Source: Mongoliibacter ruber (lineage in GTDB: Bacteria > Bacteroidota > Bacteroidia > Cytophagales > Cyclobacteriaceae). From it: DNA of 64,000 bases. The notes beneath the pieces were generated by a model. That model was not told the DNA's origin. It made no database searches and saw only the letters and a list, made by a program, of their open reading frames with translations. Of this stretch, positions 14,185 through 40,560 are shown piece by piece. The position numbers and the translations under genes were made by a program. How positions within the stretch are numbered: position 1 is the first letter of the stretch; each line of letters begins with the position of its first letter. The stretch covers positions 267,108-331,107 of the forward strand of contig NZ_PVTR01000001.1 of the NCBI RefSeq assembly GCF_003003005.1, in the 5' to 3' direction.

Positions 14185-14595
14185 TCAGAGGTCTGCCTCC
14201 ATTACTTTAAGCTCTGCTTCGAGGCTTGCAATTTTATTGATGGTATTGATATAGCGTTGATCCTCCTCAATTGGAAAAAGGGAATCCCATTTGGTGACTA
14301 CTTTTGCCAGTTTGTTTTTGTATTCTGTGACCTTTCCTTTCTTTGCTCTGAGCTTATTAATCTTTTGCTGATCAAGCGTTTTTTGGCTGGATTCACAATG
14401 TCCCCACTTGAATTCTACATGGGCTTTGGGGTGTTGAACCTGAGCTAAAGCAGCCCGGTATTTGAAATACCAATCCCATTTATTACGGATTTCAAATCGC
14501 ATATCATCCCATCTGATGATTTGAAGGAGGTTTCCCCCCTTCTTATCAAAAACCTTGATTAGGACAAAGTGGGCATTATCATATACTGTAATCAT
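14185..14595 (-). CDS. hypothetical protein
   Basis: ATG at 14593-14595 overlapping upstream stop (ATGA). Confidence 0.5.
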   Translation of the reverse strand: MITVYDNAHFVLIKVFDKKGGNLLQIIRWDDMRFEIRNKWDWYFKYRAALAQVQHPKAHVEFKWGHCESSQKTLDQQKINKLRAKKGKVTEYKNKLAKVVTKWDSLFPIEEDQRYINTINKIASLEAELKVMEADL

Positions 14596-16100
14596 GATTG
14601 CCCTCCTTTCTTTGGCTCAAACAATGGATATCCTTTGATTCGGGATATTTCCTGATTGAATCTGGCCCATACGTTTTCGTCTTTGAACTTGAAGTGGATG
14701 GTGCCTTTTTTGTATCCTTTGATCTCGAAAAATTCCCAGTCAAACCACTGCCCAAATTCTACCTGTGGCAATCTTTTGCAGTCTGGATTTTTCTCCAAGT
14801 AGGAAAGCATATCTGATTCATTTCTGAAATAGACCGGATATGCCCTGAATTTTACGCTTTGATCCAGTAGAACTTGGCCCTCTCTTTCCACCATAAATTC
14901 ATGGTTGCACCGATCATACAGCGATATGGATTTGTTGTAATCCTTTCCTGTGATGTAGCATAGGGCTTTGAGTAGGTCCTCTATTTTTTCCAAGTTGTGT
15001 GAACCGTACCTAACAGCAAATTTTCCACTCCAGCTTATCTCGGTCAATCCGTCCAGGATGAATTTTTGATTGACCAGGTAATGGCTATTGGTTTTCCATC
15101 CTTCGACTGCATACCTGTTTTCATGGTAGTGCTTTGTGATGCGGTCAAATACATCTTCCAATGCCCGATCCATTCTTGACCTTTGTGTACCCACTATCAT
15201 TTGGATCATGGCATAGATATTCTTCATCGTGAAGGGTATCTTTTGCTGCGTCTCTACAAATTTGTTGATGTCATCCTTCACTGATTTGGTGACATACTTC
15301 CCCATGTTCATCTTATCCAGCACATAGTTCCAAGCGGATTTTTGCAGATCTTTTTTGAATTCCTCACGGGTGGTCTTGGCTTCGTCTGTGGTCAGGTTGA
15401 GACCTATTTTGGATTTGTAGAAAGTTTTGGTAAGCTCATTCATCCGGACAGCAGCATTAAGCTGTTCATCGAAGATTTTGACCGATCCGACATACCTTCC
15501 TACTATATCCCGGACAAAGTTGTAGCGCTGCAATCCTTCCACTTGCGCTTCTTCCTCCTCATCCATAAAGAATCCTTCAAACTCGCTTTCTCCGGATTTT
15601 GGTTTTCTGAGGATGATATAAGCCACTTCCACACCTGTCTTTCGTTCCGCATTGGAAAAGCAGTCACCCAGATAATCCATCTGTCCATAATCATCTATGA
15701 TCCTCTTGAGCACTTTTCTTGTTCTGTTGTAGATGTTGGCCACGGTTTCCCAATTGCAAAGTGCCCTGATCTCGCAGCCTTCGGGAGCAATTTCCCAAGC
15801 ATGAAGGATATGCCGTGCATCTTCACTAAATGGAGGATTCATTATTATGTGTGAAATATGGCTTATCTGAGCGCTTTTAACTTTGAAGAAATCATCCTCG
15901 ATTACCCTGCATTTGAGCATAGCGCGGAGTTTGGGTTCTTTTTCAGAGGCAATTACTTCTGCGCCTCGGATAAGACAATAATCCACCATATTTCCAGAAC
16001 CTGCATGAGGCTCCAGTATTTTGGATTCTGGGAAAGCAATCCCTTCGGTGATCCGCTCGATGACTGCTTCGGGTGTTGGGTAAAAGTCTGAGTTAAACAT
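14592..16100 (-). CDS. N6-adenine DNA methyltransferase with ~330-aa C-terminal domain of unknown function
   Basis: FYPTPEAV, EPHAGSGN (motif I), NPPF (motif IV) in first ~110 aa; remainder unassigned. Confidence 0.7.
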   Translation of the reverse strand: MFNSDFYPTPEAVIERITEGIAFPESKILEPHAGSGNMVDYCLIRGAEVIASEKEPKLRAMLKCRVIEDDFFKVKSAQISHISHIIMNPPFSEDARHILHAWEIAPEGCEIRALCNWETVANIYNRTRKVLKRIIDDYGQMDYLGDCFSNAERKTGVEVAYIILRKPKSGESEFEGFFMDEEEEAQVEGLQRYNFVRDIVGRYVGSVKIFDEQLNAAVRMNELTKTFYKSKIGLNLTTDEAKTTREEFKKDLQKSAWNYVLDKMNMGKYVTKSVKDDINKFVETQQKIPFTMKNIYAMIQMIVGTQRSRMDRALEDVFDRITKHYHENRYAVEGWKTNSHYLVNQKFILDGLTEISWSGKFAVRYGSHNLEKIEDLLKALCYITGKDYNKSISLYDRCNHEFMVEREGQVLLDQSVKFRAYPVYFRNESDMLSYLEKNPDCKRLPQVEFGQWFDWEFFEIKGYKKGTIHFKFKDENVWARFNQEISRIKGYPLFEPKKGGQS

Positions 16101-19167: not shown

Positions 19168-21696
19168 TTAAAATGGTGCTGGTCCTTTTCTTTGATCCCA
19201 AAGCTCTTCCTGTTTGTACTGCTTATTGTCAAGGGGTTGGGCTTCGGCAAACTCCTTGGTTTTCTTTTCTTCTTTGCTGTCCTCTTCTTCATGTTTGCTG
19301 AATTCGAACGGTGCTCTGAATTCCTGGTATTCTACAGGAGTGAGCCAATCATCTGGCTTGAAGAGGTAATGCCTTTGGGTTTCCTCTATGTAGGCTATCC
19401 TAGGTTCATTGTCAGAATCGAAACCATTGATATGCGTAGGCAGCTTACACCTTCCCGGAGACAGGTACTTCATGCCTTTTTTCTCCTCCAGATAATACTT
19501 CAGTTCCTTTTCATCTATCCTGTATTTGCTCAGTGCCGGATCATTGAGGTATTTGAGCATGGTCTTTCTATTGACCCTAATGGATGGAAGCTTGTAGGTG
19601 AGGAAAAGGTCTTTGATCCAGTTTTCTACCACCACATCAAGTCTGGCCTTGGTGACTTCGATGATCTTCCGCATTTGATCGGTTTCGAAGTCTTTGGGGT
19701 CAAACCACAGCCTTGAGGTTTTCTTGTGGAAGATTTTTCGGTTTGAAAGAAAGCTGATCCAAGCGGGGATTTCTGTTTTGAGCTTATTCTCCAAGTCTGG
19801 ATCCTCTTTGTCGGTCTTTTTTACTTTGACCACAAACCAACGGGTATCTTCCTCCTCCATTTTCATCAGGTTGTCCGCGTCATTGGAACAGATAATCAGA
19901 TGCCCGAAATATGGAATAGGCTTCACGTCGATTCCTTTGAGTTCCATGAATATCTCCTTGGCGGTAACCATCTGCTTGAGCCTTTCCCGTTCCGCTTTTT
20001 TCTCGACATCCAAGAAACCTTCATCAAGGCCGATGATAAACTTGGAAGCCCAGTGGGCGTTGAAGTTTTTCTTGAACTGGTCATTGTTCAGCACGATGCC
20101 ATTGCCATTGTACACCATGCACAGCCATTCGAGAAAAGTGGACTTTCCTGTCTTTTGGTCCTTGGATACCAGGCAGGGAACAAAGGTCTTTTGGGTGGGA
20201 TGTTGATGGAGAATGGTCAGGTAGTCCAATGCTATGGTGAATTGATCGCCCTTGTAAGCCGTTTCTTTGTACACTTTTTCCTCTTCATCCCATTCCACTT
20301 TTCCTTCTCCTTGGAATAGGTGTTTGACAAAGCCAAGTGTAGTGTCAATCCTGCCCGGCTTTGGATCCCACATCAAAGGTTCCATCAGGTTGTAGCAGCC
20401 GTATATTGTCCTTCGGTATCCTTTGGGGTCCCAAGAGGGCAGCGAAAAGAATCCGTCAAAACGTGGGATATCCTTATTGATCATCTGCTCTGCCTGGTGC
20501 TTGGGATAATCCCTTTTTATTTCAGTCACAGACCATTTTTCAATCCTTTCTTCCGTGATTCCTCTGTGGTTGGGCAGGCGGACTCGCTTGATCCAGTTGA
20601 TTCCTATTCTGGCGAATCGGTCTGCTTCTTCCGACTTGACATATTTTAGCTCCTCTCCTGTCCACTCGTACTTAGTGCGGTTGAAGATGAAAGGCCTACT
20701 GCCAATATATTCCTTATAGATGGCGTAGAAATCAGACTGATTGTTAGTGCCGAAATAGCGGTATATCCCCGAAGTCTGACCGTCAGTAAGTGGCAATCCA
20801 TCAAAGTAGGTTTTCGCAAAGTGCAGCTGCGAAAGGTCATCCATGATCTGCTGCTGCTTAGCCGGCAGCGAGACCAAAAGATCATCCAAGCCCTTAGTAT
20901 GCTCATACATTTTGGTCTTGAGGTGCATAAAGTAGACATGCGTGAGGTTGACGCTTTTGTCTTCAATGAGCAGGTGAAGACTGTTGCGGAAATTTGCCAC
21001 TGCATTGGCAAAAGACATGGGGCGTGTCCTTAGGTCTTTGTTGTCTTTCCACTTGACAGTAAGGGTATCTGCGTCAAGGAGCATGACAATATTTTTGACT
21101 TCACAGTCCAGAATAATCTGCTGTATGATTTCATTGATTTCCCGACGGTGGTTGGTGTCTCCTCCATAAAAGCCGTGAATACCTGGAATGCCGACAAATT
21201 CCCAGTTTTCCATTTCCCCGATTTTGTCCTTGACCATCCAAGCTTTGAAAGCCTTGAACTCCCCTTCCACCAAGACCAGAGTTTCAATTTTCTTATCCGT
21301 ATTATATGCCTTGATCACCCCGGGGGTGAGATAAGGGACCAGCGGAGAGCCTTTTTCCTGATGGTACTTGGCAGTGTGGATATTACCGTCCTTTTCATAG
21401 GTATTTTCTTTGGTCAGACGGATTCGGGAAAAGTTCTTAGACCACTTCAGTCCATCAGGTTTCCAGTCAATCGGGTAACCGGTGGGCAGGAAGTAATTGA
21501 TCTGAATTCCTTTTTCATGGATTTCAAATGCCTTGTTTTCTTTGGTTTTGGTGGTGCGTATCCAAGCTGAATTTTCTCCATGCTCATAGTCCGGACTGGT
21601 GATCGTATTGATCTCCTCGGTAATGCCGAGGCCGCGGAGTCGCTCCTCGTAATATAATTTTGCTTCATCGGGTATGGTGGTTTTCGGATTGCTCAT
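19168..21696 (-). CDS. phage/plasmid primase-helicase (P4 Primase_C / D5-like SF3 NTPase domain)
   Basis: 842 aa; C-terminal half has KDQKTGKST Walker A and IIGLDEGF Walker B in P4-primase C-terminal context. Confidence 0.7.
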   Translation of the reverse strand: MSNPKTTIPDEAKLYYEERLRGLGITEEINTITSPDYEHGENSAWIRTTKTKENKAFEIHEKGIQINYFLPTGYPIDWKPDGLKWSKNFSRIRLTKENTYEKDGNIHTAKYHQEKGSPLVPYLTPGVIKAYNTDKKIETLVLVEGEFKAFKAWMVKDKIGEMENWEFVGIPGIHGFYGGDTNHRREINEIIQQIILDCEVKNIVMLLDADTLTVKWKDNKDLRTRPMSFANAVANFRNSLHLLIEDKSVNLTHVYFMHLKTKMYEHTKGLDDLLVSLPAKQQQIMDDLSQLHFAKTYFDGLPLTDGQTSGIYRYFGTNNQSDFYAIYKEYIGSRPFIFNRTKYEWTGEELKYVKSEEADRFARIGINWIKRVRLPNHRGITEERIEKWSVTEIKRDYPKHQAEQMINKDIPRFDGFFSLPSWDPKGYRRTIYGCYNLMEPLMWDPKPGRIDTTLGFVKHLFQGEGKVEWDEEEKVYKETAYKGDQFTIALDYLTILHQHPTQKTFVPCLVSKDQKTGKSTFLEWLCMVYNGNGIVLNNDQFKKNFNAHWASKFIIGLDEGFLDVEKKAERERLKQMVTAKEIFMELKGIDVKPIPYFGHLIICSNDADNLMKMEEEDTRWFVVKVKKTDKEDPDLENKLKTEIPAWISFLSNRKIFHKKTSRLWFDPKDFETDQMRKIIEVTKARLDVVVENWIKDLFLTYKLPSIRVNRKTMLKYLNDPALSKYRIDEKELKYYLEEKKGMKYLSPGRCKLPTHINGFDSDNEPRIAYIEETQRHYLFKPDDWLTPVEYQEFRAPFEFSKHEEEDSKEEKKTKEFAEAQPLDNKQYKQEELWDQRKGPAPF

Positions 21697-27393: not shown

Positions 27394-27552
27394 AATGGTA
27401 TTTGATATACAACAATTATGTATTTGTTACGTATCAAAACAAGTAAAAAGTATATATAAAGTCAAGTAATATTAATATATTTTATATATTTTTTGCGTAA
27501 TCAACTGACATTCAATACGCTAATTTTACATAATACAAGTAAAAAGCATTTA
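27394..27552. promoter_or_regulatory. divergent promoter/operator (genetic switch) region
   Basis: very AT-rich; ACAAGTAAAAAG direct repeat at 27439-27450 and 27535-27546, plus a CAAGTAA half-site at ~27461. Confidence 0.5.
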
Positions 27553-27921
27553 ATGAACGATTTCAGAAGCAGGATAGCAGAGGGTTTAAAATCTCTTAGA
27601 CTTCAAAAAAATTACTCTCAGGAGTATATAGCTGAAAAGCTTGGTAAAAGTGATTATACAGGTTATCAACGTATTGAGTCAGGTCGAACAGAATTAAAAT
27701 TTGAAGATGCTTATAAATTAGCGGACATATACAATGTCCCAATGGAAAAAATTTATAATCCGGATCTCAATGAATCCAGTACTTTTTCGGAAGGTTCTGT
27801 AGCTCCCTATGGAAAAAGAGAAGTCCTTCATCTCAACATTTACCTCGATGGCACAGAGACTCAACTTGATAAGCAAATAGAGCTTTTGAAGCGCGTCAAT
27901 TCCTGCATTACATCTGACTAA
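27553..27921 (+). CDS. XRE-family HTH transcriptional regulator (repressor-like)
   Basis: NYSQEYIAEKLGKSDYTGYQRIESG HTH; ATG 27553 chosen because the operator repeat lies inside the longer track ORF. Confidence 0.75.
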   Translation: MNDFRSRIAEGLKSLRLQKNYSQEYIAEKLGKSDYTGYQRIESGRTELKFEDAYKLADIYNVPMEKIYNPDLNESSTFSEGSVAPYGKREVLHLNIYLDGTETQLDKQIELLKRVNSCITSD

Positions 27922-28180
27922 TTGAAACAGTTTCTGAAACAAAAGTAGGTTTTGAAACAGTGAAACAAGATTAAAAAACGCTGTTTTAGGCCGTTTTAAG
28001 GTATATGAAAAAGAATATGCGTGATCCTTCCGAGTGCACTATAAACATCGATTATTGGTTTAAAAACGGCTTTTTTTATAGCTTCACTTTATCATTTAGG
28101 ATTAGAAGTTTGTTGATTAAGTCCATATTTGAGGAAAGAAAGCAATTTTGAATCAAATTATTTGTGATAGCATATAAAAT

Positions 28181-28213
28181 ACCCACTTCTGACAAGAGGT
28201 GGGTATTTTTTTG
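28181..28213. terminator. bidirectional rho-independent terminator
   Basis: ACCCACTTCT-gaca-AGAGGTGGGT hairpin followed by ATTTTTTTG; T-rich on the other strand too. Confidence 0.6.
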
Positions 28214-28367: not shown

Positions 28368-29033
28368 CTATTGGCTTTTCAATTGTTCTTCTAAAAGTTT
28401 AATTTTATGCTCCATGGAAGCAAGTCTTTTTTCCAATGGAGTTTTATCCTTGACAGGACTATAAATTCCAAGCACTTCATAGAGACCTTTAGATTCTTTT
28501 AGGCTAAAGGTTGAATTATCTAGTATGATGCTATTTGGTTTATAGTCATCAACTTTTCCTATTTTATATACGCCATTTGATTGCACTACAAATAGTTTTC
28601 CCACAACCGGCTCATGCGGCACTGCAAAAATTATTTCATCTGGTTTTATATAAGCATTTGCTTCGACTTGATCAGATAAAATGAAAATTAGATTATTTGG
28701 AAAGATTCCCGAATTTTCTCTTGAAAATATCCCTGAAGATAATTGATTAACTGGGTTCTGAATGATTGTTGGTAAACTAAAGCCACTTAATTGATTGACA
28801 GTTACGTTGCTTGAAAGGAGGATATCAGTTGAAAGGTGAAATACTTCTGCTGTTTTCAATATGGTTTCAATTTTTGGTTCTGCCCTTCCCTCTTCATAAG
28901 AACTTATTACACCTCTGCTAACCTCTAGCAAATCTGCCAATTGAGTTTGTGTCAAACCTCTCACATTTCTTATTTTTTTTATGTTTTTACCAAATTTTGA
29001 CATGCCTTTGATTTTCGTAAATTTATGATGCAA
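28368..29033 (-). CDS. cI/LexA-like repressor: XRE HTH N-terminus plus S24-like C-terminal domain
   Basis: RGLTQTQLADLLEVSRGVISSYEEG HTH; ~110-aa C-terminal beta-rich domain; likely true start MSKFGK at ~29003. Confidence 0.6.
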   Translation of the reverse strand: MHHKFTKIKGMSKFGKNIKKIRNVRGLTQTQLADLLEVSRGVISSYEEGRAEPKIETILKTAEVFHLSTDILLSSNVTVNQLSGFSLPTIIQNPVNQLSSGIFSRENSGIFPNNLIFILSDQVEANAYIKPDEIIFAVPHEPVVGKLFVVQSNGVYKIGKVDDYKPNSIILDNSTFSLKESKGLYEVLGIYSPVKDKTPLEKRLASMEHKIKLLEEQLKSQ

Positions 29034-29150
29034 ACAAAATTAGCATTAAATAGCTAATAATAATTGCAAAATTAAAATTTTTATTTATTATTGTAAAACA
29101 GTTGATCTAAATATAATTCATTTTTAAAAAAACCCTATAAAGAGTTGATT

Positions 29151-29540
29151 ATGGAGCATTATTTTAAAATTGTAAAAGAATATGTACTTGAACTTGGTTC
29201 TGTCATCCAATATGAAAATGAGTCTGACAACTTATTGGTAATAGAAAATGAAGATATGGGAGTCAAGAACATGGTGATTGGTGTAGCAACTCCCATCATT
29301 ATTATCGAACAGTACTTGTTCGACTTGAAGGATGAGGCAAATATTTACAAACAGTTGCTTATCAAGAACAGAGACATTGTACACGGTGCATTTGTATTGG
29401 ATGAAACAGGCAAAAAAGTCATTTTCAGAAATACATTGCAGGCAGAAACTTTAGACCTGAAGGAATTGGAAAGTACCATCAATTCGCTCGGCCTTTTGCT
29501 TTCTGAGTATTCAAACGAAATATTATCATTTTCCAAATAA
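29151..29540 (+). CDS. YbjN-like domain protein
   Basis: 129 aa from first ATG (track ORF begins at a TTG 6 nt upstream); alpha/beta pattern typical of YbjN/T3SS-chaperone-like fold. Confidence 0.5.
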   Translation: MEHYFKIVKEYVLELGSVIQYENESDNLLVIENEDMGVKNMVIGVATPIIIIEQYLFDLKDEANIYKQLLIKNRDIVHGAFVLDETGKKVIFRNTLQAETLDLKELESTINSLGLLLSEYSNEILSFSK

Positions 29541-29551
29541 ACCTTACTGTT

Positions 29552-30274
29552 ATGAACGTTTTAAAAAGATTATTCAAAATAGGACAAGCAGAAACCAATT
29601 CAGCCATCGACAAACTAGAAGATCCAATCAAAATGATTGAACAGGGTCTTAGAGACATGCATGAAAATCAAGACCGTGCATTAAAGGCACTTGCGGAAGT
29701 TAAAGCAATGCATATTAGAAGAAGCAGGGAACTAAAGGAATCCATCAGTCAAGAAGAAGACCTTCAGAACAAGTCTGTCTTACTCCTGAAAAAAGCACAG
29801 ACGGGTGAGCTGGACAAAACAGAAGCTGACAATTTTGTTAAAGAAAACCTAAGAAGAAAGGCCAAATTAAGCCAGGAAATCAAATTGATAACAGAAGATG
29901 TCAGCAACCTGGAAAAACAAGTGGCAAGTCTTGAACAAAATGTAAACAGAATCAAAGCAGGGATCAAACAGTGGGAAAATGAGCTTGGTACCCTGAGAGC
30001 AAGAATCAAAGTTAGTAGCGCCACTCAGAAGATCAACAAACAGATGACCAATATGGATAGCACAAGTGTGGTGTCTATGTTAGAGCGTATGAAAGACAAA
30101 GTCATACAAGATGAAGCTCTGGCAGAGGCTTATGGAGAAATGGCTGAAAGCAGTATTACACATGAGGAAAAGCTTAAAAAAGCCCTGGAAGATATTTCTG
30201 TAGAGGATGAATTGGCCCAAATGAAAAGAAACATGGGACTCTCCGATTCAAAGGAACAGTCAGAAAATACTTGA
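29552..30274 (+). CDS. pspA: PspA/IM30 (ESCRT-III superfamily) protein
   Basis: N-terminal ...AIDKLEDPIKMIEQGLRDMHEN... matches PspA/Vipp1 helix alpha1-2; 240-aa coiled coil. Confidence 0.85.
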   Translation: MNVLKRLFKIGQAETNSAIDKLEDPIKMIEQGLRDMHENQDRALKALAEVKAMHIRRSRELKESISQEEDLQNKSVLLLKKAQTGELDKTEADNFVKENLRRKAKLSQEIKLITEDVSNLEKQVASLEQNVNRIKAGIKQWENELGTLRARIKVSSATQKINKQMTNMDSTSVVSMLERMKDKVIQDEALAEAYGEMAESSITHEEKLKKALEDISVEDELAQMKRNMGLSDSKEQSENT

Positions 30275-30341
30275 GTAAACCAAGTGTTCAAGAAATTAAA
30301 GACTGTCCAGCAAAACAAATCTTTCAAACTAACAGCGCAAC

Positions 30342-30974
30342 ATGGAAAGACTAATTGAAATATCTTTTGCCCCAGCCAATTTCATACTAACCCTCCTGGG
30401 GATTATCATGCTGATTTATTGGCTTGTAGTCATCTTCACAGGTTTTGATTTTGAAGTGGCGGATCTGGATGCAGAAGCTGATCTGAGCAACCCAGAGGTG
30501 GGTGTTGCTGAAGGACAGGGGTTTTGGAATGCATTTATGGAGTTTTTCTATATCGGAGAATTGCCTGTCATGTTTATCATTTCCATTGTCGTATTCACCA
30601 TGTGGCTGATCAATGTAAATGTGACCGCAGTATTTGGAATTTCGGATAGTCTTTTGGGATTCTTGGTGTACATTCCAGGGTTGGTGGTTAGCATGCTCGT
30701 CACAAAAGTAGTTGCCAGACCCTTTGTAAAACTGTATGGGCATTTCAATCACAAAGGTGAAGTTGCAATAGATTTTATAGGAAAAACAGGACGTGTAGTC
30801 TCCCCTATAGGAAAAAACAAAATCGGTCAGATCGAAATACAGATTGAAAGTGATGTCGTAAAGGTCTACGCCAAATCGATTGATGAGGACTTTATTAAGT
30901 TCAATGAGACAGTCATCATTTTGGAAGAGTCCTCGGATAAAAAATATTTTTTAGCTCAAAAATATCAACTATAA
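30342..30974 (+). CDS. NfeD/YqiJ-like membrane protein with C-terminal OB-fold-like domain
   Basis: three or four TM helices then ~70-aa beta-rich C-terminus; immediately upstream of a flotillin gene, as for nfeD/yqiJ. Confidence 0.55.
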   Translation: MERLIEISFAPANFILTLLGIIMLIYWLVVIFTGFDFEVADLDAEADLSNPEVGVAEGQGFWNAFMEFFYIGELPVMFIISIVVFTMWLINVNVTAVFGISDSLLGFLVYIPGLVVSMLVTKVVARPFVKLYGHFNHKGEVAIDFIGKTGRVVSPIGKNKIGQIEIQIESDVVKVYAKSIDEDFIKFNETVIILEESSDKKYFLAQKYQL

Positions 30975-30988
30975 ACCAATAAAATCTT

Positions 30989-33013
30989 ATGATGGAATCA
31001 TTTTATGTAATAGCAGGAATAAGTGTAGTCGTGCTATTAGGGCTATTTGTTTGGCTCATTTCAATGTACAAAAAAGTTAGCCAAGGCCGTGTATTAGTTC
31101 GGACAGGTCAGGGTGGTGTAAGGATATTCTTCAATGCAGGATTGGTGGTACCAATCCTGCACAAAGAAGAAATCATGGACATCTCAGTCAAAAAGCTGGA
31201 AATCTCCAGAATGACGAAAGATGGTCTGATCTGCAAGGACAACATGAGAGCTGACATAAAAGTGGCCTTCTTTGTCCGCGTCAACAAATCTGTTCAGGAT
31301 ATCATTAATGTAGCCCAGACCATCGGATGCGCCAGGGCCTCTGATCATGAGACACTTGAAAGTTTGTTTGAAGCCAAGTTTTCGGAAGCATTAAAAAGTG
31401 TGGGGAAAAAATTTGAATTTATAGAGCTTTATGAAGCTAGGAGAGAATTCAGGGACGAAATTATCGACATCATTGGTACAGATCTAAACGGATACGTGCT
31501 TGATGACTGTGCAATTGACTATTTGGAACAAACCAAAGTAGAAAATCTGGACCGGGACAATATCCTTGATGCTGAAGGTATCAAAAAAATCACAGAGCTG
31601 ACTGCTGCACAAAACATCAAAGCTAACTTGATCAGAAGAGATGAAGAGAAAATCATAAAAAAGCAAGATGTAGAAGCTAGAGAAGCAATTTTGGAGTTGG
31701 AAAAACAACTCAAAGAAAAAGAAGAATCCCAAAGACGTGAAATTGAAACCATAAAGGCCCGAGAGCAGGCAGAGATTGACAAAGTAACATCTCAGGAAAG
31801 GCTTAAGTCAGAGGAAGTACGTATCCGTACTGAAGAGCAGTTGCAAATCCAAGAAGAAAACAAACTTCGACAGGTAATTATTGCATCCAAGAACAAAGAA
31901 CGAGCAGAGGCTGTAGAAACCGAAAGGGTGAAAAAAGACCGTGATATTGAAGCCACAGAACGTGAGCGAGTAGTTGCCCTTGCTCAAATTGAAAAAGAGA
32001 AGGCCGTTGAAATTGAAAAGAAAAACATTCAGGATGCCATTAGGGAGCGAGTAGCTATGGAAAAGACTGTAGTGGAAGAGCAGGAGAAAATCAAAGATGT
32101 AGAAGCACTAAAAGAGGCACATAGACAGAAAGATGTCGCCTTAATAATTGCTTCTAAAGAGGCTGAGAAAAACCTGATTGAAGAAGTGAAAGCTGCAGAA
32201 TCCAAAGAAAAATCTGCCAAGCACGAAGCAGCTAAAATCATCATCGAGGCCAATGCACGCAAAGATGCAGCTGATAAGGAGTCTGATGCAAGAAAAATCA
32301 TTGCCGAGGCAAAAGCCAAAGAAGAAGCTACCATTGGTATGTCAGAAGCACAAGTGATGCATGCTAAAGCTGATGCTATGGAACGTCAGGGAACTGTAGA
32401 TGCCATAGTAATTGAGAAAGTGGCTGAAGCGAAAAGAAAAGAAGGATTGGCAGAGGCTGAAGTAATTCAAGAAAAAGCTATTGCAGAGGCGAAAGGTATT
32501 CAGGAAAAAGCAGGTGCTATGAAGCAACTCAATGATGCTGGGAAAGAGCATGAAGAATTCCGATTGAAGCTTCAAAAGGAAAAAGATGTCGAGTTAGCAC
32601 AAATCAGCATTCAAAAAGATATCGCAGATGCGCAGGCGAAAGTACTTTCAGAAGCATTTAAAACTGCTAAGATTGACATTGTCGGAGGAGACAACACCTT
32701 CTTTGATAATCTTATCAAGCAGATTTCTACCGGAAAAGGAATTGATAAAATGGTTGAAAACTCAACTACCATCACACAATTTAAGGATGCACTTATAGGA
32801 AACGGTATCGACGATACGCCTACGGACTTGATAGAGAAAATAAGAAGCATTGCCCACAAATACGGCATAACCACAGAGGACCTCAAAAACATCTCGATTG
32901 CTGCTCTAATAGCACAAATTCAGATGAAAGCAAGCGATGAGGATAAAGGCTTTTTGGCAAGCATGCTGACCATGGCTAAAGGAATGGGAGTAGAAAACAG
33001 GAGGATCTTATAA
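30989..33013 (+). CDS. flotillin/YqiK-like SPFH (band-7) protein with long E/A/K-rich coiled coil
   Basis: N-terminal TM then SPFH core (GQGGVRIFFNAGLVVPILHKEEIMDISVKKLEI...) and ~350-aa EA repeats. Confidence 0.85.
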   Translation: MMESFYVIAGISVVVLLGLFVWLISMYKKVSQGRVLVRTGQGGVRIFFNAGLVVPILHKEEIMDISVKKLEISRMTKDGLICKDNMRADIKVAFFVRVNKSVQDIINVAQTIGCARASDHETLESLFEAKFSEALKSVGKKFEFIELYEARREFRDEIIDIIGTDLNGYVLDDCAIDYLEQTKVENLDRDNILDAEGIKKITELTAAQNIKANLIRRDEEKIIKKQDVEAREAILELEKQLKEKEESQRREIETIKAREQAEIDKVTSQERLKSEEVRIRTEEQLQIQEENKLRQVIIASKNKERAEAVETERVKKDRDIEATERERVVALAQIEKEKAVEIEKKNIQDAIRERVAMEKTVVEEQEKIKDVEALKEAHRQKDVALIIASKEAEKNLIEEVKAAESKEKSAKHEAAKIIIEANARKDAADKESDARKIIAEAKAKEEATIGMSEAQVMHAKADAMERQGTVDAIVIEKVAEAKRKEGLAEAEVIQEKAIAEAKGIQEKAGAMKQLNDAGKEHEEFRLKLQKEKDVELAQISIQKDIADAQAKVLSEAFKTAKIDIVGGDNTFFDNLIKQISTGKGIDKMVENSTTITQFKDALIGNGIDDTPTDLIEKIRSIAHKYGITTEDLKNISIAALIAQIQMKASDEDKGFLASMLTMAKGMGVENRRIL

Positions 33014-33165
33014 GATTCTCCTATCTTACCCATTTCCATCAAAACCATCCTGGACTTGACGACAACTATTTATTGATTTGTCAAAGTTTAGAAAATTAAG
33101 CCTTGGTTTTCATTTTAGTCTGTTAAATAACCCAACCAGTTTTATTATAACTTTTATCCATTAAT

Positions 33166-36100
33166 ATGGAAACGAATATAGAAAGAGGTACTTACGAAAT
33201 CATACAAGGCCGTCTCCAACAGCAACGGTCCCAACTGATCGAAAGGCTGCAAAAACTTAATAGAGAAAGGCAACAAATATTTGGCGCCGTTGATTTTAAA
33301 CTGCTCTCAAATGTCCGTATCAATACCCAGCACAATTGTATTGCGAGGGATATTGTGTCCGTTGGCGGAATATGTCTTTTCGGATATAATGTCCGTCTTG
33401 GTCTGAAATCAGTCCTGGAAGTTGCAGATGTATTTAGTGCCTTCCGCTTTACAGAAAACGAATTTCACCCCCTCTCTCTGGATATTATTCAGGACAAAAG
33501 TTTTGCTGATGAACTACAAAACCTATATAAATTTTATAGGTATACCCAGTTTTCCAGATTTTTTGTCAAAGGAAATTTTCTCTATATGGTTTTTCAGCTT
33601 TCGGAAAGTCCTACAGATATCAAAGCTTTTAAATGGTTGATCGAAGAGGAAAAGCTTCAGTTCCTAAATTCCAGAAGTGCTGCGGAAGTCACTTTTCCAT
33701 TACAACACGAATTTGAATGGGTGAGAGCTACCCGTGACATGCAGAGAATTGGAAAAAACCCTCATGTTTCAGTGGTAGATAAGGTATTTGTAGAGACTAC
33801 CAAAGGTAACTTGACCATCAAAGTAGAAGACAATACAGATGACGGATTGGGGATATACTCTGAAGATGTGGAACATGCCGATCAGTCTTTGGATGATGGT
33901 GAAATACATTATTGCGACTTGGGAAACCTTGTACTGTTAAAAATTCGCCCTTATTTAGAAAGTGACCGATATTTTATTTTTAATCATCGAATTAAAAATG
34001 TGGTAAGAGTGGATACTCTCAGGGATGCCGGAATCCTTTTACCAGATGATCAAGGCATCATGCTTTCCAATGGTTATTATTTACAGACTGGGGAAAATAA
34101 GATTTTTGACAGAAAAATTGAAGGAGTCAAGTTTTTAAGAAAAATACAGTCTCCAAATGGAGAAGATTACCTTTTTATCTTCTACGAAGAAAAAAACCAT
34201 GACTTTGTGATTCTGTCCTATAATGTCATAGAACAGACAGTAAAAACCCCGATTTTCTGTAATGGCTTCACTCTTTTCAATGACGGTGAACTTTGCTATT
34301 TTAATACAGAAAAAGACCCGAGTAAGCATCACCTGATTCAAATATGGCAAACTCCCTATACCAAGGAGCTCTTACCAAACGAGGCTTTCAAGGATCATGA
34401 ACTTTACAAAATTGGCAATCGGCCAATTGTAAAAGCCATGGCCGAAATCCAAGAACTTGTTGTTTTGCTGAATAAAGAAGACAGTTATAATGGCTTGTAT
34501 GAAGATATTGAAAAACGAAGTCAAAGCATTCTGGACGGTTACTTTTGGTTGAAAAACAATGCCCCGGAAGGACTACAGCAACCCTTACAACAAGTTAAGG
34601 AAATAGCCCTTTCAGCCATTGATGAGTATGAAAAAGTAGTCCAAATCAGAGAAAATACGGTCGCTACTTCGAATAAGGTCAAAGAAAAAGTAGAGAAAAT
34701 ACTTTTTGACACACGTAGCGCCAATTTTGACAGCCTTGACAAATATGTTTCATTGCTTTCGCAGATGAGGGGAATTCGAGGTGAGATTATCGGACTCAAA
34801 AATCTGCGGTACATAGACATGGAAATGGTGGATCAGCTTGAAGATCAGATGTCTAAAAGATCAGAAGAGCTATCCAAAGGTTGTGTACAGTTTTTGTTGC
34901 AAGACAATGCTCTTGAGTATTATCAGACTCAAATGGAACAATTGACGGAGTCAGTTGGAGGGCTGTCCAAGGTCATAGATGCTAAGGAATTGGAAAAGGA
35001 ATTAAATGCCCTTTCTCTACAGTTAGAGTTGTTGATTGATATAGTAAACAACCTTAATGTAGAGGACACTGCGCATTCCACCCAAATCATTGAAAACATT
35101 TCCTTGATTTTTGCCCAACTTAATCAGCAAAGGGTTGCCCTTAACAACCGAAGAAGGCAGCTTGGAGAACGGGAAGCCAGAGCTGATTTCCAAGCACAAA
35201 TGACCTTATTTGAACAATCTATAGTCAACTATTTAGACTTGGCCAATGATCCGGTCAAATGTGACGAATACCTCACAAAGCTTTCAATACAGCTAGAAGA
35301 ACTGGAAGGACGTTTTGTTGATTTTGATGAATTTATAGACAAAATAAGTGAAAAAAGGGAATCAGTTTATGCTGCTTTTGAATCCAAAAAAGTCAACCTA
35401 ACTGAAGCTCGAAATCGCAGAACCAACTCTCTATTCAGTTCCGCTGAACGTATCTTGAAAAGTATTAAATCACGGGCCGGAAGTTTTGAAACAGATGTTG
35501 AAATTAACGGCTATTTTGCATCAGATCTGATGATTGAAAAGGTACGTGATGTGGCTTCGCAGTTACAGCAGTTGGATGATGCAGCCAAGTCAGAGGATTT
35601 ACTGTATCAACTGCAGGTATTACAACAAGAATCCATACGTGCATTAAAAGATAGAAATGAGCTTTTTGAAGATGGTAATCAAGTCATCAAACTTGGGGAA
35701 TACCGCTTTGCTGTCAATCAGCAAAAACTAGACCTTACTTTGGTGATAAAAGAGCGCCAATATTATTTTCACCTTACAGGAACCTCCTATTACGAACAAG
35801 TAAATGCTCCTGAAATCGAGGCTTTGAAAGACCTATGGGAACAGGAACTGCCCTCAGAAAATCAGACGGTTCATAGAACAGAATACTTGGCTTGGCAGGT
35901 TTTTCATACGCTCGATAAAAGCAAACCATTAACAGAAGCCGAATTAATAAGTAGTATAGCGAAATATACCTCCAAACATTATGGGGAAGGTTATGTCAAA
36001 GGCGTACATGATCAAGACGCCCTGTTGATCTTGAAAACGCTGCTTGAAAAAGACAGAGACCTAGGGTTACTCCGCTTTGCTGCCGATACCAGAGTATTGG

Positions 36101-38022
36101 CACAACTTTTCTGGCATTTCTTTGCTGAGGATCAAAAGGCTTTTTTCAAAAAACAGTTTGTCTTCCTCAACTTGCTCAAACAAGCTTTTAGCCACTCACG
36201 GGAGGAGCTACACTTACTGGAAACACTCAGGAAAGCCATTTCACAATTTTCTAAAGCACACAAATTATTTGAAAGTACCGATCCATATCAGGCTGCTCTA
36301 TATTTGGCAGAAGAACAGGCATCAGAAGGCGTTGTGATGGAGGCTAATGCATTTGACTTGCTTCAAAACTTCAAAAAGGAACTGAAATCAAAAAATGCAG
36401 ACTTAACTTTTACTGAAGCACAACAAGAGATCGCAGCATTCCCAGCTGAAGTCTGGCATCTATCAAGGCAATGGCTCAGTACCTATGCTGAAAACCAACA
36501 ACTTTCACTCCCTGATAGCATTTTGGATGAAGCCACAGCGTATATAGTTACCAAAGCTGCAAACATTCAAAGTGTTCAACAAATTTCAGGTAAAGCCAGT
36601 CTAGAAGGGCTAAAAGAAGCCATAGGTCAACAGGATGGAGAAGAGAATCTTTACCAATTCGATTACCATGACTTTACCCGTAGACTAAAGCATTTTACAG
36701 AAGAAATTCAACCCAGATATCAGCAATTGCAGAGTTTGAAACACCAGCTAATTTTGCAGAAAAGACAAGCTCTTCGTTTGCATGAATTCCAAACGCAAGT
36801 TCTGACCAGTTTTGTACGAAATAAGTTGATCAACCAGGTATACTTCCCTTTGATCGGAGCCAATTTCGCCAAACAGTTGGGGGCATTTGGCGCAGACAAA
36901 CGAACCGACCGGTCAGGGATGCTGCTGCTTATTTCCCCTCCTGGATATGGCAAAACCACCCTGATGGAATATGTAGCAGATCGCTTGGGATTAATTTTTA
37001 TGAAGATAAACGGTCCTTCCATAGGGCATGAAATCACCTCGGTGGATCCTTCAGAAGCAAGAAATGCCGCGACTAGACAGGAACTACAGAAACTGAACTT
37101 GGCATTTGAAATGAGTGACAATGTGATGCTCTACCTGGACGATATTCAGCATTGTAATCCGGAATTTCTTCAAAAGTTCATTTCTCTCGCAGATGGACAA
37201 AGAAAGATAGAGGGTGTTTTTAACGGCGTTTCTAAAACTTATGATTTCAGAGGCAAGCGCTTCTGTGTGGTTATGGCAGGTAATCCCTATACCGAAAGTG
37301 GGGATAAATTCCAGATCCCAGATATGTTGTCAAACAGGGCTGATATTTACAACTTAGGTGACACCGCATCCAATAGAGCTGATTTGTTCAAGCTGAGCCT
37401 AATAGAAAATGGATTAACTTCCAATTCCCACCTCAAATCCATTACCCAGTATGGGTTGGATAATTTATATAAACTGGTGGAATTTATAGAAAGCGAACAA
37501 CAACAGTTGCCTGATTTGGAGGGCAACATAACCTCCCAAGAAATCCAAGATTGTGTGCAAGTATTGCGAAAAACGATGGTTATCAGAGATGTTGTATTGA
37601 AGGTCAATGCCCAATACATTGCTTCTGCAGCCATGTCCGATGACTATAGAACTGAGCCACCGTTCAAGCTACAGGGTTCTTATCGGGATATGAATAAGCT
37701 GATGGGTCAAGTAGTACCGATTTTGAATGATGGTGAAATAACTCAATTGCTGTTGGACCATTATCAAAACGAATCCCAGACATTGACTTCCGATGCTGAA
37801 TCCAATTTATTGAAATTATCCGAAATGATGGATTTGCTAGATCCCAAAAAACTAGCCAGATGGGAAGCTATTAAAACTGCATTTGTTCGAAACAACCGGG
37901 TTAAAGGCATGGGAGATTCTGACAGGATGGCACAGGTAATTGGTCAAATGACTCTGTTTGTTGAAGGTTTGGAGGGCATAAAGAATGCTCTAAATCAATT
38001 CAACAAAAATGATAAATTATAA
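33166..38022 (+). CDS. giant (1618 aa) protein: beta-rich N-terminal region, ~700-aa helical region, AAA+ (AAA_5/MoxR-like) ATPase module
   Basis: Walker A LISPPGYGKTTL (~36940), Walker B MLYLDDIQ, sensor-1-like VVMAGNPY; ATG 33166 verified. Confidence 0.7.
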   Translation: METNIERGTYEIIQGRLQQQRSQLIERLQKLNRERQQIFGAVDFKLLSNVRINTQHNCIARDIVSVGGICLFGYNVRLGLKSVLEVADVFSAFRFTENEFHPLSLDIIQDKSFADELQNLYKFYRYTQFSRFFVKGNFLYMVFQLSESPTDIKAFKWLIEEEKLQFLNSRSAAEVTFPLQHEFEWVRATRDMQRIGKNPHVSVVDKVFVETTKGNLTIKVEDNTDDGLGIYSEDVEHADQSLDDGEIHYCDLGNLVLLKIRPYLESDRYFIFNHRIKNVVRVDTLRDAGILLPDDQGIMLSNGYYLQTGENKIFDRKIEGVKFLRKIQSPNGEDYLFIFYEEKNHDFVILSYNVIEQTVKTPIFCNGFTLFNDGELCYFNTEKDPSKHHLIQIWQTPYTKELLPNEAFKDHELYKIGNRPIVKAMAEIQELVVLLNKEDSYNGLYEDIEKRSQSILDGYFWLKNNAPEGLQQPLQQVKEIALSAIDEYEKVVQIRENTVATSNKVKEKVEKILFDTRSANFDSLDKYVSLLSQMRGIRGEIIGLKNLRYIDMEMVDQLEDQMSKRSEELSKGCVQFLLQDNALEYYQTQMEQLTESVGGLSKVIDAKELEKELNALSLQLELLIDIVNNLNVEDTAHSTQIIENISLIFAQLNQQRVALNNRRRQLGEREARADFQAQMTLFEQSIVNYLDLANDPVKCDEYLTKLSIQLEELEGRFVDFDEFIDKISEKRESVYAAFESKKVNLTEARNRRTNSLFSSAERILKSIKSRAGSFETDVEINGYFASDLMIEKVRDVASQLQQLDDAAKSEDLLYQLQVLQQESIRALKDRNELFEDGNQVIKLGEYRFAVNQQKLDLTLVIKERQYYFHLTGTSYYEQVNAPEIEALKDLWEQELPSENQTVHRTEYLAWQVFHTLDKSKPLTEAELISSIAKYTSKHYGEGYVKGVHDQDALLILKTLLEKDRDLGLLRFAADTRVLAQLFWHFFAEDQKAFFKKQFVFLNLLKQAFSHSREELHLLETLRKAISQFSKAHKLFESTDPYQAALYLAEEQASEGVVMEANAFDLLQNFKKELKSKNADLTFTEAQQEIAAFPAEVWHLSRQWLSTYAENQQLSLPDSILDEATAYIVTKAANIQSVQQISGKASLEGLKEAIGQQDGEENLYQFDYHDFTRRLKHFTEEIQPRYQQLQSLKHQLILQKRQALRLHEFQTQVLTSFVRNKLINQVYFPLIGANFAKQLGAFGADKRTDRSGMLLLISPPGYGKTTLMEYVADRLGLIFMKINGPSIGHEITSVDPSEARNAATRQELQKLNLAFEMSDNVMLYLDDIQHCNPEFLQKFISLADGQRKIEGVFNGVSKTYDFRGKRFCVVMAGNPYTESGDKFQIPDMLSNRADIYNLGDTASNRADLFKLSLIENGLTSNSHLKSITQYGLDNLYKLVEFIESEQQQLPDLEGNITSQEIQDCVQVLRKTMVIRDVVLKVNAQYIASAAMSDDYRTEPPFKLQGSYRDMNKLMGQVVPILNDGEITQLLLDHYQNESQTLTSDAESNLLKLSEMMDLLDPKKLARWEAIKTAFVRNNRVKGMGDSDRMAQVIGQMTLFVEGLEGIKNALNQFNKNDKL

Positions 38023-38511: not shown

Positions 38512-40560
38512 TTAAGTTATAGAGGAGTTTTCCATTGCATTTACTCCTTGACTAAGATTTGATGTAGTGATTTTAATAATACTATTCAGTAAAATATTTT
38601 TATCCAAGATACCTGGCCCAACATTGACGATATTACCTTCACAATTCACAAGATTATTCCCAGTGAACTGAAACATCTTTTGGGTATTTATTTCAAATTT
38701 CCCACCCATACAATTATTATAATTGAATCTGTTTGCAAACCCAAAACGGCTACCGTAGAAATTACGAATATCAAATGGACGCTCGCAATTGTTGAAGTTA
38801 TTCTTATAAATATTGTTCCCAATAGCATAGTTGAAAAATTCAGGATTTGTCACTCCAAAACTCCCGAATCCAGCTAGATGCATTCCATGCTTGCATCCAT
38901 CGACGGTATTGTTTTCTACATTGCAGTAAAAACTGGCACCCCAAAGACTGATACCATGTCCCGGTTGTCCACTGGCTGGTATTGCACCATAGACTATGTT
39001 ACCAGATATGTCACAATTGTATGCGCCGGTAAACAAAGCGACTTCTGTCCCTTTTGACAGTTTTGATTTATCTAAACTTGCCTTTAAAAAAAGTCTATAA
39101 GTAGTACGCCCTTCAAAATTAATCACTTCTGATCTCTCAATAAGGGATGTGGTTAACTCCAATGCACCAGATTCAATCAAAAACAGGAAATTTTTCGGGT
39201 CATCAATTTGATCAGCATTTATTGTTCTATGCTCAAAACCTCCCCCATTATCCTTTTGTTGAACAAAAATCAATTGCTGAAGGTCAATGATTCTACCTAC
39301 GACAAAATCTCCCTTCATCCAATCTCTTACATTTTCGATTTTTGTTCTTGCTATTACCGGAAACAATCCAAGATTATTTCCAAAAGCATCAATTGAAATA
39401 CTTTCTTCTGTACAGTTCTTTACCTCATTATCCCTGATTTTTACATTTCTTAATAACTTTCTCCTTTGAGTTGCTACCTGAATACCAGTGGTCCCATTTT
39501 TTACTTTATTTTTTGACACATCACATGCACCAATGAAATCATTTACCCGAATCGGATGCGAAGACGATTCTATATTCATATCACAGTATTGAATTTCCAC
39601 ATTATTTGCTGTACCCACCCAAATACCACAATAGACGCTATCGGCATTAATTTTTACACCATGACAATATATATTTGATTTTGAATGATTAACATTGATA
39701 AGATAAGTTGATGATGTAGTAATGGTCTTGAAATTCAATTCAACGTTCTTAAGATAAAAATCCCTATCCAAATGTCTGCTTCCCGTTGAAGGAATAATGT
39801 TGTGCAAAGTCAGGTTTTCGAGCTTGCTATCGATTGAGGCGATAATGTCAGGATTAGTGCTGACACCGATCAATACCGAATTGCCCGACCCTTTTATTTT
39901 CAATGGTTGCTGATCAAAGAAAAGTGTATTGAGTCCATGCCCTTGTAAATGAATAAAAGTGCCATTCGGAACCAGCACTTCGCAACCGCATAAATTGTAT
40001 TTATTCAAATCATCTGCTGAAATAAAACCAATTGCATTTTCAAGTACGAATGAACCATTGTTATTTTTCAATATATGAGGTGATATTGACTGTATGCTAA
40101 AAGTAGTAGGTTGACCGTTGGTCAAAATATTGTTATAAGTCACATCACCTTTCTCTGTAGGATATAAAATATAATACACTTTCTCATTACTATTTTCAAT
40201 GACTATTCTACTATGATAAGTATCCTTGAATGTATAGCCATGAACTTGTGAATCGATTGACCTTGCCCCTAGTGAAGTGATATCAATAGTCCCGGCAAGG
40301 CCTTCAGAGGTAGGTTGAAGGCTTGAATGAGGATTAGGTTCCGGATTTGAATGAGACGCCTGTACAGGAACTGATTGGGAAATAGGCACAGGAATAACGG
40401 CAGGATTTGGTTCTGGCTGTTTTGAATGAGTTTCAATATTATCAACCAACTCTTTTAAGGTTTTAAGCCTTGAAGTAATATCATTCGCCAGATTTACTAT
40501 AGTGTCAGCATCTACTCTGATTGTCTCTGCATTTTGAATAATTCTTTCTTTATTGTTCAT
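38512..40560 (-). CDS. right-handed parallel beta-helix protein with N-terminal coiled coil and Pro-rich linker (tailspike- or lyase-like)
   Basis: repeated N/G/V-rich beta-helix rungs (NNTVDGCKHGMHLAG, IYKNNFNNCERPFDIRNF...); no signal peptide; flanked by ~500-bp AT-rich non-coding DNA. Confidence 0.6.
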   Translation of the reverse strand: MNNKERIIQNAETIRVDADTIVNLANDITSRLKTLKELVDNIETHSKQPEPNPAVIPVPISQSVPVQASHSNPEPNPHSSLQPTSEGLAGTIDITSLGARSIDSQVHGYTFKDTYHSRIVIENSNEKVYYILYPTEKGDVTYNNILTNGQPTTFSIQSISPHILKNNNGSFVLENAIGFISADDLNKYNLCGCEVLVPNGTFIHLQGHGLNTLFFDQQPLKIKGSGNSVLIGVSTNPDIIASIDSKLENLTLHNIIPSTGSRHLDRDFYLKNVELNFKTITTSSTYLINVNHSKSNIYCHGVKINADSVYCGIWVGTANNVEIQYCDMNIESSSHPIRVNDFIGACDVSKNKVKNGTTGIQVATQRRKLLRNVKIRDNEVKNCTEESISIDAFGNNLGLFPVIARTKIENVRDWMKGDFVVGRIIDLQQLIFVQQKDNGGGFEHRTINADQIDDPKNFLFLIESGALELTTSLIERSEVINFEGRTTYRLFLKASLDKSKLSKGTEVALFTGAYNCDISGNIVYGAIPASGQPGHGISLWGASFYCNVENNTVDGCKHGMHLAGFGSFGVTNPEFFNYAIGNNIYKNNFNNCERPFDIRNFYGSRFGFANRFNYNNCMGGKFEINTQKMFQFTGNNLVNCEGNIVNVGPGILDKNILLNSIIKITTSNLSQGVNAMENSSIT

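Follow-up and report, generated by a model that had tools for sequence, protein, structure and literature searches.

Gene organization of the locus

A stretch of 64,000 nucleotides (nt) from Mongoliibacter ruber, a member of the Bacteroidota (NCBI RefSeq assembly GCF_003003005.1, contig NZ_PVTR01000001.1, positions 267,108 to 331,107 of the forward strand; hereafter the window, with position 1 at its first letter), carries a module of six genes that encode a divergent XRE regulator, a CesT/Tir chaperone, a PspA protein, a YqiJ protein, a flotillin and a giant AAA+ ATPase of the DUF3686 family. The module has the following features, with product lengths in amino acids (aa):

28368..29003, minus strand: XRE/Cro-type helix-turn-helix (HTH) regulator, 211 aa (HTH_3, E 4e-13)
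29004..29150, no strand: divergent control region of 147 nt between the regulator and the operon
29151..29540, plus strand: CesT/Tir-type chaperone-like protein (gene 1), 129 aa (PF22550 CesT_Tir_1, E 2e-52, full length)
29552..30274, plus strand: PspA/IM30 protein of the ESCRT-III superfamily (gene 2), 240 aa (PF04012, E 2e-37)
30342..30974, plus strand: YqiJ/YuaF-type membrane protein (gene 3), 210 aa (profile alignment with Escherichia coli YqiJ)
30989..33013, plus strand: YqiK-type flotillin, SPFH/Band 7 (gene 4), 674 aa (Band_7 and similarity to E. coli YqiK)
33166..38022, plus strand: giant soluble DUF3686-family AAA+ protein (gene 5), 1618 aa (DUF3686, DUF7902 and AAA/AAA_5)

An open reading frame (ORF) check returned the five plus-strand genes at exactly these coordinates, separated by spacers of 11, 67, 14 and 152 nt, which matches the co-directional run and the spacers given in the original prediction for this locus. 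No plus-strand terminator-like site was found between the operon genes; the sole such site within the operon (36081-36102) lies inside the coding region of the giant protein and probably arose by chance. A scan for sigma-70 promoter-like sites, which is of little use on a Bacteroidota genome, gave 19 sites, fewer than the 29 in shuffled sequences.

The YqiJ-flotillin-ATPase triad is the conserved core

Gene order was compared in 80 loci fetched with the giant gene as anchor, the best-scoring subset of at least 557. Counts refer to the 64 loci with at least 5 kb of upstream sequence, 43 from Bacteroidota and 21 from other phyla (Planctomycetota, Verrucomicrobiota, Desulfobacterota, Kiritimatiellota, Omnitrophota and Clostridia). 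A co-directional flotillin gene lies upstream of the giant gene in 61/64 loci and a co-directional YqiJ gene in 60/64, an arrangement far beyond chance. PspA and CesT genes occupy such a position in 33 and 32 of the 64 loci, respectively; they are confined to Bacteroidota (33/43 loci), and no PspA gene was found within 10 kb of the giant gene in any of the 21 loci outside this phylum. In four very distant family members, at 25-28% identity, the giant gene likewise directly follows a flotillin gene; YqiJ is there in every case in which the contig extends far enough, and PspA is absent. Since flotillin and YqiJ accompany the giant gene almost universally whereas PspA is restricted to Bacteroidota, the core of the module is the triad of YqiJ, flotillin and ATPase, and the CesT-PspA dyad together with the XRE regulator is a Bacteroidota elaboration on it. 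The gene neighborhood thus proves to be a conserved co-directional membrane-associated module, as the original prediction had it. Its further proposal, that the giant AAA+ protein remodels a PspA/flotillin scaffold, survives in part: ATP-driven remodeling is a reasonable expectation, but PspA is not a conserved partner.

No additional conserved gene was detected in the flotillin-to-giant gaps, which reach 600-900 nt in some loci, or downstream of the giant gene. Four loci encode a related protein of ~183 aa directly 3' of the giant gene (L010:6277-6828, L023:14989-15633, L035:7084-7632 and L078:4687-5235).

Structure of the giant DUF3686 ATPase

More than 4120 sequences are related to the giant protein at E ≤1e-10; the nearest come from Mongoliitalea (80%) and Pararhodonellum (77%), which places the window in a member of the Cyclobacteriaceae. 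Full-length members of the DUF3686 family measure 1600-2036 aa, and the N-terminal 700 residues define a compact family of 252 clusters (50% identity) at E ≤1e-30. The protein possesses neither a hydrophobic segment nor a protease domain. AlphaFold2 models of residues 1-1150 and 1101-1618, with a predicted local distance difference test (pLDDT) score of 76.8 and 78.7, respectively, divide it into the following regions:

residues 9-39: N-terminal helix (AlphaFold2 model)
33301..34350, plus strand, residues 46-395: all-β β-propeller within DUF3686 (AlphaFold2 model)
34399..35664, plus strand, residues 412-833: long α-helical, coiled-coil-like region that includes DUF7902 (Pfam and AlphaFold2 model)
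residues 840-878: small β unit (AlphaFold2 model)
residues 881-1130: helical domain (AlphaFold2 model)
36913..37365, plus strand, residues about 1250-1400: AAA+ core (model and motif alignment)
up to residue 1618: helical C-terminal region (AlphaFold2 model)

Structural similarity search of the 1150-residue N-terminal model using Foldseek returned generic β-propeller and dynein-like helical matches. Those of the propeller are weak (prolyl-oligopeptidase and paraoxonase propellers, E ~1e-4), and the helical region has no informative relative.

The AAA+ core displays a Walker A motif (SPPGYGKTT), a Walker B motif (DDIQH), a sensor-1 motif (MAGNP, with N1373) and Arg1391. These elements are invariant in 79/79 family members from at least seven phyla, and the enzyme must therefore be under strong constraint. 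In the model, a β-hairpin directly precedes the sensor-1 strand; classical AAA proteins such as Vps4 are not known to have a hairpin at this position. Pfam AAA_5 scores above its cut-off, and comparison of the AAA+ module gave figures of 16.4 for CbbQ and 16.2 for NorQ (both MoxR-type), 13.9 for Midasin, 13.8 for ClpB, 13.3 for Dynein, and 11.9 and 11.4 for Vps4 (ranks 25 and 39). By structure and profile, the module is closest to the MoxR/AAA_5 group and not to the classical clade; the giant ATPase looks MoxR-like, not Vps4-like.

This fold assignment bears on a bacterial counterpart of Vps4, the analogy drawn in the original prediction, in which the giant protein would mainly disassemble or remodel the ESCRT-III-like polymers of PspA. 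The presence of PspA in the same operon, here and in 33/43 Bacteroidota loci, is what such an enzyme would call for, and when the Walker A region is compared with the PDB by sequence alone, it matches classical AAA proteins (E ~1e-4). Moreover, Ravi et al. liken couplings of PspA/Snf7 with AAA+ proteins in general to the Snf7-Vps4 pair, though these are described for other AAA+ families (PMC11237479). The analogy does not carry over to the giant protein itself, where Pfam detected no MIT domain, the N-terminus being a helix followed by a β-propeller, where the AAA module is MoxR-like, and where PspA is missing from all 21 loci outside Bacteroidota; we consider a Vps4 counterpart decidedly improbable.

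The name of the family at NCBI and UniRef is 'DNA repair ATPase', apparently taken over from the Pfam description of DUF3686. Taken at face value, the name would make the giant protein a DNA repair enzyme whose linkage to membrane genes is incidental. RuvB is indeed among the top Foldseek matches, and some members outside Bacteroidota have a basic C-terminal tail; however, no DNA-related domain, context or paper was found in support of the name, and this reading strikes us as scarcely credible.

Giants from outside Bacteroidota (L020, L031, L055, L059, L065 and others) carry C-terminal extensions of 66-346 residues with a repeated 'DGLExI' helical motif, many of them with a strongly basic tail at the end, and the giant protein of L055 ends in apparent ankyrin-type repeats. 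These C-terminally extended proteins occur in lineages without PspA/CesT.

YqiJ and flotillin

For genes 3 and 4, whole-protein Pfam and NCBIfam scans and a PDB sequence search gave no match. The gene 3 product has three hydrophobic segments, as shown by hydropathy analysis, an acidic loop and an NfeD-like β domain at the C-terminus. Pairwise BLASTP between gene 3 and E. coli YqiJ fell short of significance and had to be replaced by a comparison of profiles: the profile of 21 orthologues aligned with E. coli YqiJ over its full length, from the three transmembrane segments to the C-terminal OB-like domain (hhalign 95.2%, E 2.8e-8, 179 columns). In addition, Pfam YqiJ_N is matched by 8/21 orthologues; gene 3 itself scores below the cut-off against Pfam NfeD (E 0.12, 13 bits).

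The flotillin consists of an N-terminal transmembrane (TM) segment, an SPFH domain, a long Glu/Lys-rich helical region and a C-terminal domain. Its residues 1-226 match Band_7 (E 1e-13, 52.2 bits, cut-off 23.6), and it shares 30% identity with E. coli YqiK over 448 aa (E 3e-49), an alignment that spans the SPFH domain and the coiled coil. The miss in the whole-protein Pfam scan may stem from the Glu/Lys-rich coiled coil, given that Band_7 emerged once the N-terminal part was scanned by itself. In the last 212 residues, a Pfam scan open to E 10 yielded no significant family.

TM segments occur in flotillin (one, residues 1-31) and YqiJ (three), but not in PspA, CesT or the giant protein. Judged by the positive-inside rule, the body of the flotillin and the C-terminal domain of YqiJ would be cytoplasmic, a layout in which the five products could come together on the inner side of the membrane.

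The CesT-PspA dyad

Gene 1 matches PF22550 with 176.9 bits against a cut-off of 27, and the YbjN-type chaperone family TY-Chap1 only weakly (E 0.01). Gene 2 matches PF04012 over residues 2-227 (129.3 bits, cut-off 33.9) and is 25% identical to E. coli PspA (E 1e-10) and 27% identical to YjfJ (E 4e-7). Against the equivalog TIGR02977/PRK10698 it reaches 43 bits, below the cut-off of 243. By these sequence comparisons, it is a member of the PspA family and not an orthologue of E. coli PspA.

With these assignments, the names that the original prediction gave to the five products can all be kept: PspA, flotillin and giant AAA+ protein are borne out by the matches to PspA_IM30, to Band_7 and YqiK, and to DUF3686, DUF7902 and AAA/AAA_5, respectively, and the NfeD-like protein is upheld as a YqiJ-type protein by the hhalign alignment (E 3e-8) and the YqiJ_N matches of its orthologues. 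The term 'YbjN-like' for gene 1 is correct at the superfamily level but not beyond it.

The XRE regulator and its control region

The regulator gene starts at an ATG at 29003, its ORF reaching upstream to a TTG at 29033, and is transcribed divergently from the operon. Orthologues lie in the same position and orientation in 32/33 PspA-containing loci, as well as in L001, L043 and L083 (Mongoliitalea daihaiensis). The XRE gene is not part of the neighboring mobile element. It belongs to the module, and as this conserved gene (28368-29003, minus strand) sits in between, the locus, contrary to what had been supposed, does not begin right beside the mobile element.

The C-terminal domain of the regulator is poorly conserved; the protein also has a terminal helix. 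Table S3 of Ravi et al. 2024 lists the regulator as '<-cHTH+Protease' (PMC11237479). Comparison of this domain with Peptidase_S24 gave no match in Pfam or the PDB. In our reading of the orthologue alignment, most orthologues have Glu or no residue where an S24 catalytic Ser would be expected, and the C-terminal half (window 28368-28760) is degenerate in the window protein. Given the missing Peptidase_S24 match and the replaced or absent Ser, LexA-like self-cleavage is not claimed here. The domain may serve as a non-catalytic sensing or dimerization domain.

Within the control region, a pseudo-palindromic motif, GC[T/A]AA-N5-TTwGC, occurs twice, at 29030-29044 and, with one mismatch, at 29053-29067. 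It is found in 30/34 orthologous intergenic regions, compared with 0.1 expected in shuffles. A promoter-like site (TTGCAA-16-TATTAT, 29064-29091) shares part of its first hexamer with the second copy. The motif is a candidate operator of the regulator, with the XRE protein as a putative repressor of the operon.

Flanking regions and the mobile element

The following features lie to the left of the module:

28176..28209, plus strand: terminator-like hairpin of 15 pairs, 5 of them G-C, then a T run
4017-5246, 6978-10208, 11068-12552, 12566-14131, 14592-16100 and 19168-21696: example coordinates in the mobile element

The hairpin has the last mobile-element gene (27493-27921) on one side and the 3' end of the regulator gene on the other, and probably bounds the module. 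A boundary in this area is consistent with the public contig for the locus, which begins at about window position 28010. Window positions 1-28000 are a mobile element with defense-type genes, whose products comprise a ClpP-like protease, a 1076-aa Type ISP restriction-modification enzyme, an SF1/Schlafen-like helicase, a C5 cytosine methylase, DUF4942 and a DUF5906 primase-like protein. No tRNA gene marking an integration site was found in the window.

In the locus of Mongoliitalea daihaiensis (L083, CP063779.1; giant protein 80% identical), only the six module genes are common to the window, and the adjacency to the prophage is therefore incidental. The module lies there downstream of a Peptidase_M14 gene and upstream of a cell-shape cluster encoding FtsW, PBP2, MreC and MreB. 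Both flanks differ between the two genomes; the whole module may have changed its place or been transferred in one piece. In the window, the operon is closely followed by a convergent gene (38512-40560, minus strand) for a 682-aa protein with no significant Pfam match; this gene is not beside the module in Mongoliitalea.

These surroundings are pertinent to an anti-phage function by abortive infection or envelope defense, a role that the original prediction had read from the position next to a prophage end. The restriction-modification and helicase genes of the left-flank element and the different genomic contexts of the module in two related genomes would fit such a system. A PADLOC-DB 2.0 scan of the five proteins, however, found no defense family: the best matches, to coiled-coil and P-loop models, have E 0.0025 or worse and are noise (E above 0.002). 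Together with the unconserved adjacency, the housekeeping neighbors in Mongoliitalea and the deep conservation of the triad order over at least seven phyla, this makes a defense system very unlikely.

A proposed membrane-associated scaffold machine

The locus is best explained as a self-contained module at the cytoplasmic face of the membrane, presumably one for membrane stress, which has its own XRE regulator and two sub-modules, and whose giant ATPase acts on a scaffold of flotillin and YqiJ; we hold this explanation to be somewhat probable. The ancient and obligatory core would be the triad of NfeD-like YqiJ, YqiK-type flotillin and the giant soluble ATPase, with which the distribution of TM segments is compatible. 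In this ATPase, a β-propeller and long helical arms are predicted to precede a MoxR-like AAA+ ring module. We propose that it docks on the flotillin/YqiJ scaffold via the N-terminal propeller and helical region, and that ATP would then be spent to assemble, disassemble or reshape the scaffold or a client that the scaffold holds. The CesT-PspA dyad would be a Bacteroidota-specific add-on under the same regulator, made up of a membrane-repair polymer of the ESCRT-III type and the chaperone that holds it; it probably resides at the same membrane sites as flotillin and YqiJ, and for the ATPase, PspA would be no more than a secondary substrate.

A bolder version holds that the DUF3686 giant is a dedicated ATP-driven machine of flotillin (SPFH) scaffolds, which in Bacteroidota physically couples microdomains to PspA/ESCRT-III-type repair under a stress-responsive XRE repressor. 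We put it forward tentatively and with considerable doubt. If true, the DUF3686 giant would give flotillin/NfeD assemblies their first known enzyme for assembly, disassembly or reshaping. The function of bacterial flotillins, and the build-up and turnover of their assemblies, is an open question, and for PspA, the bacterial relative of ESCRT-III, no dedicated remodeling ATPase has been characterized. A 1600-residue ATPase with invariant motifs, encoded behind flotillin and YqiJ in at least seven phyla, is a testable candidate for the energy-consuming component. The locus thereby offers an experimental entry point, with a defined regulator, a candidate operator and mutational targets in K1263, D1325/D1326 and R1391.

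The roles within the triad may also be reversed, with the ATPase regulated or corralled by the flotillin/YqiJ assembly in the manner of FtsH by HflK/C, and with the giant protein acting on another membrane or cytosolic substrate. SPFH assemblies with a dedicated enzyme are an established theme, exemplified by HflK/C-FtsH and by stomatin with the NfeD protease. The strict linkage of the triad fits this arrangement equally well, and the β-propeller could be a substrate-binding domain; however, no candidate substrate gene is conserved nearby. We think such corralling unlikely, while nothing in the present evidence separates it from an ATPase that acts on the scaffold.

Several observations weigh against an ATPase acting on a flotillin/YqiJ scaffold within a single regulated operon. 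The giant gene occurs without flotillin in 3/64 loci (L054, L058 and L061), and the 80-locus sample is biased towards Bacteroidota. In these three loci, at least 7 kb of upstream sequence contains neither flotillin nor YqiJ nearby. The Walker B motif has Asp-Asp (residues 1325-1326, window 37138-37143) in place of Asp-Glu in 79/79 members; it is a signature of the family and may entail unusual catalytic behavior. MoxR-type ATPases are normally partnered by a VWA-domain protein, and no gene for such a partner is found in the window locus or conserved in related loci. The TTTG of the intergenic motif resembles the -33 promoter element of Bacteroidota, and the conserved motif may be partly promoter rather than operator. 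Finally, the 152-nt spacer 5' of the giant gene could hold an internal promoter.

Comparison with known systems

The AAA+ module resembles the MoxR-type remodelers CbbQ, NorQ and RavA and the AAA_5 modules of midasin and dynein. The giant protein differs from them in its Asp-Asp Walker B, in having no VWA partner, and in the 1250-residue N-terminal extension of propeller and helical regions. With Vps4/CdvC, which act on ESCRT-III (Snf7/CdvB), the likeness is an AAA+ gene beside an ESCRT-III-superfamily gene, in Bacteroidota only. Apart from lacking an MIT domain and belonging to another AAA+ clade, the giant protein has an ESCRT-III partner that is dispensable across the family, the pairing not being obligate (PspA in 33/64 loci). 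HflK/C-FtsH, by analogy, likewise represents an SPFH scaffold coupled genetically or physically to an AAA+ enzyme; the giant protein, however, has no protease domain or TM segment, and the window flotillin is of the YqiK type, not the HflK/C type.

The two sub-modules have separate counterparts in model bacteria. E. coli yqiJ-yqiK and Bacillus subtilis yuaF-floT show the same two-gene order as the window, with detectable homology for YqiK (30%) and YqiJ (hhalign 95%); unlike in the window, no giant ATPase, PspA or CesT gene adjoins the annotated E. coli yqiJK. E. coli yjfI-yjfJ has the same dyad order as the window, a chaperone-like gene of the CesT superfamily followed by a PspA-family gene. 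The window chaperone matches E. coli YjfI at E 0.03 only, and PspA proper (E 1e-10) is no more distant from the window PspA than YjfJ is (E 4e-7). Furthermore, the E. coli dyad precedes polyamine-related genes, whereas the window dyad precedes the YqiJ and flotillin genes.

No experimental study of a DUF3686 ATPase was found in the literature searched, a search for DUF3686 being empty, and the YqiK/YqiJ and SPFH literature examined does not mention the ATPase. Popp et al. 2022 described PspA alongside Band-7/FloT, NfeD and HTH regulators (PMC9239133). Ravi et al. 2024 (mSystems, section 19) reported a four-component operon that includes the CesT/Tir-PspA dyad and a YqiJ/YuaF 3-TM protein, and noted that abbreviated operons without PspA are more widespread (PMC11237479). 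In their Table S3, the row ANH61663.1 of Dokdonia donghaensis holds the same six genes in the same order and orientation: <-cHTH(+protease-like), CesT_Tir, PspA, YqiJ-YuaF, Band-7+coiled-coil+flotillin, and beta-propeller+coiled-coil+AAA ATPase (PMC11237479). All window components match this class in order and orientation, the divergent cHTH included, with no architectural difference, and both organisms are Bacteroidota. The coupling, which the original prediction took to be uncharacterized in bacteria, was thus already on record from comparative genomics (PMC11237479). The locus is a further member of a published, experimentally uncharacterized operon class, and neither this class nor the general idea of remodeling is new. 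To the account of Ravi et al., the present analysis adds the counts that identify the triad as the core, the assignment of the ATPase to a MoxR-like fold, the invariant Asp-Asp Walker B and the conserved intergenic motif.

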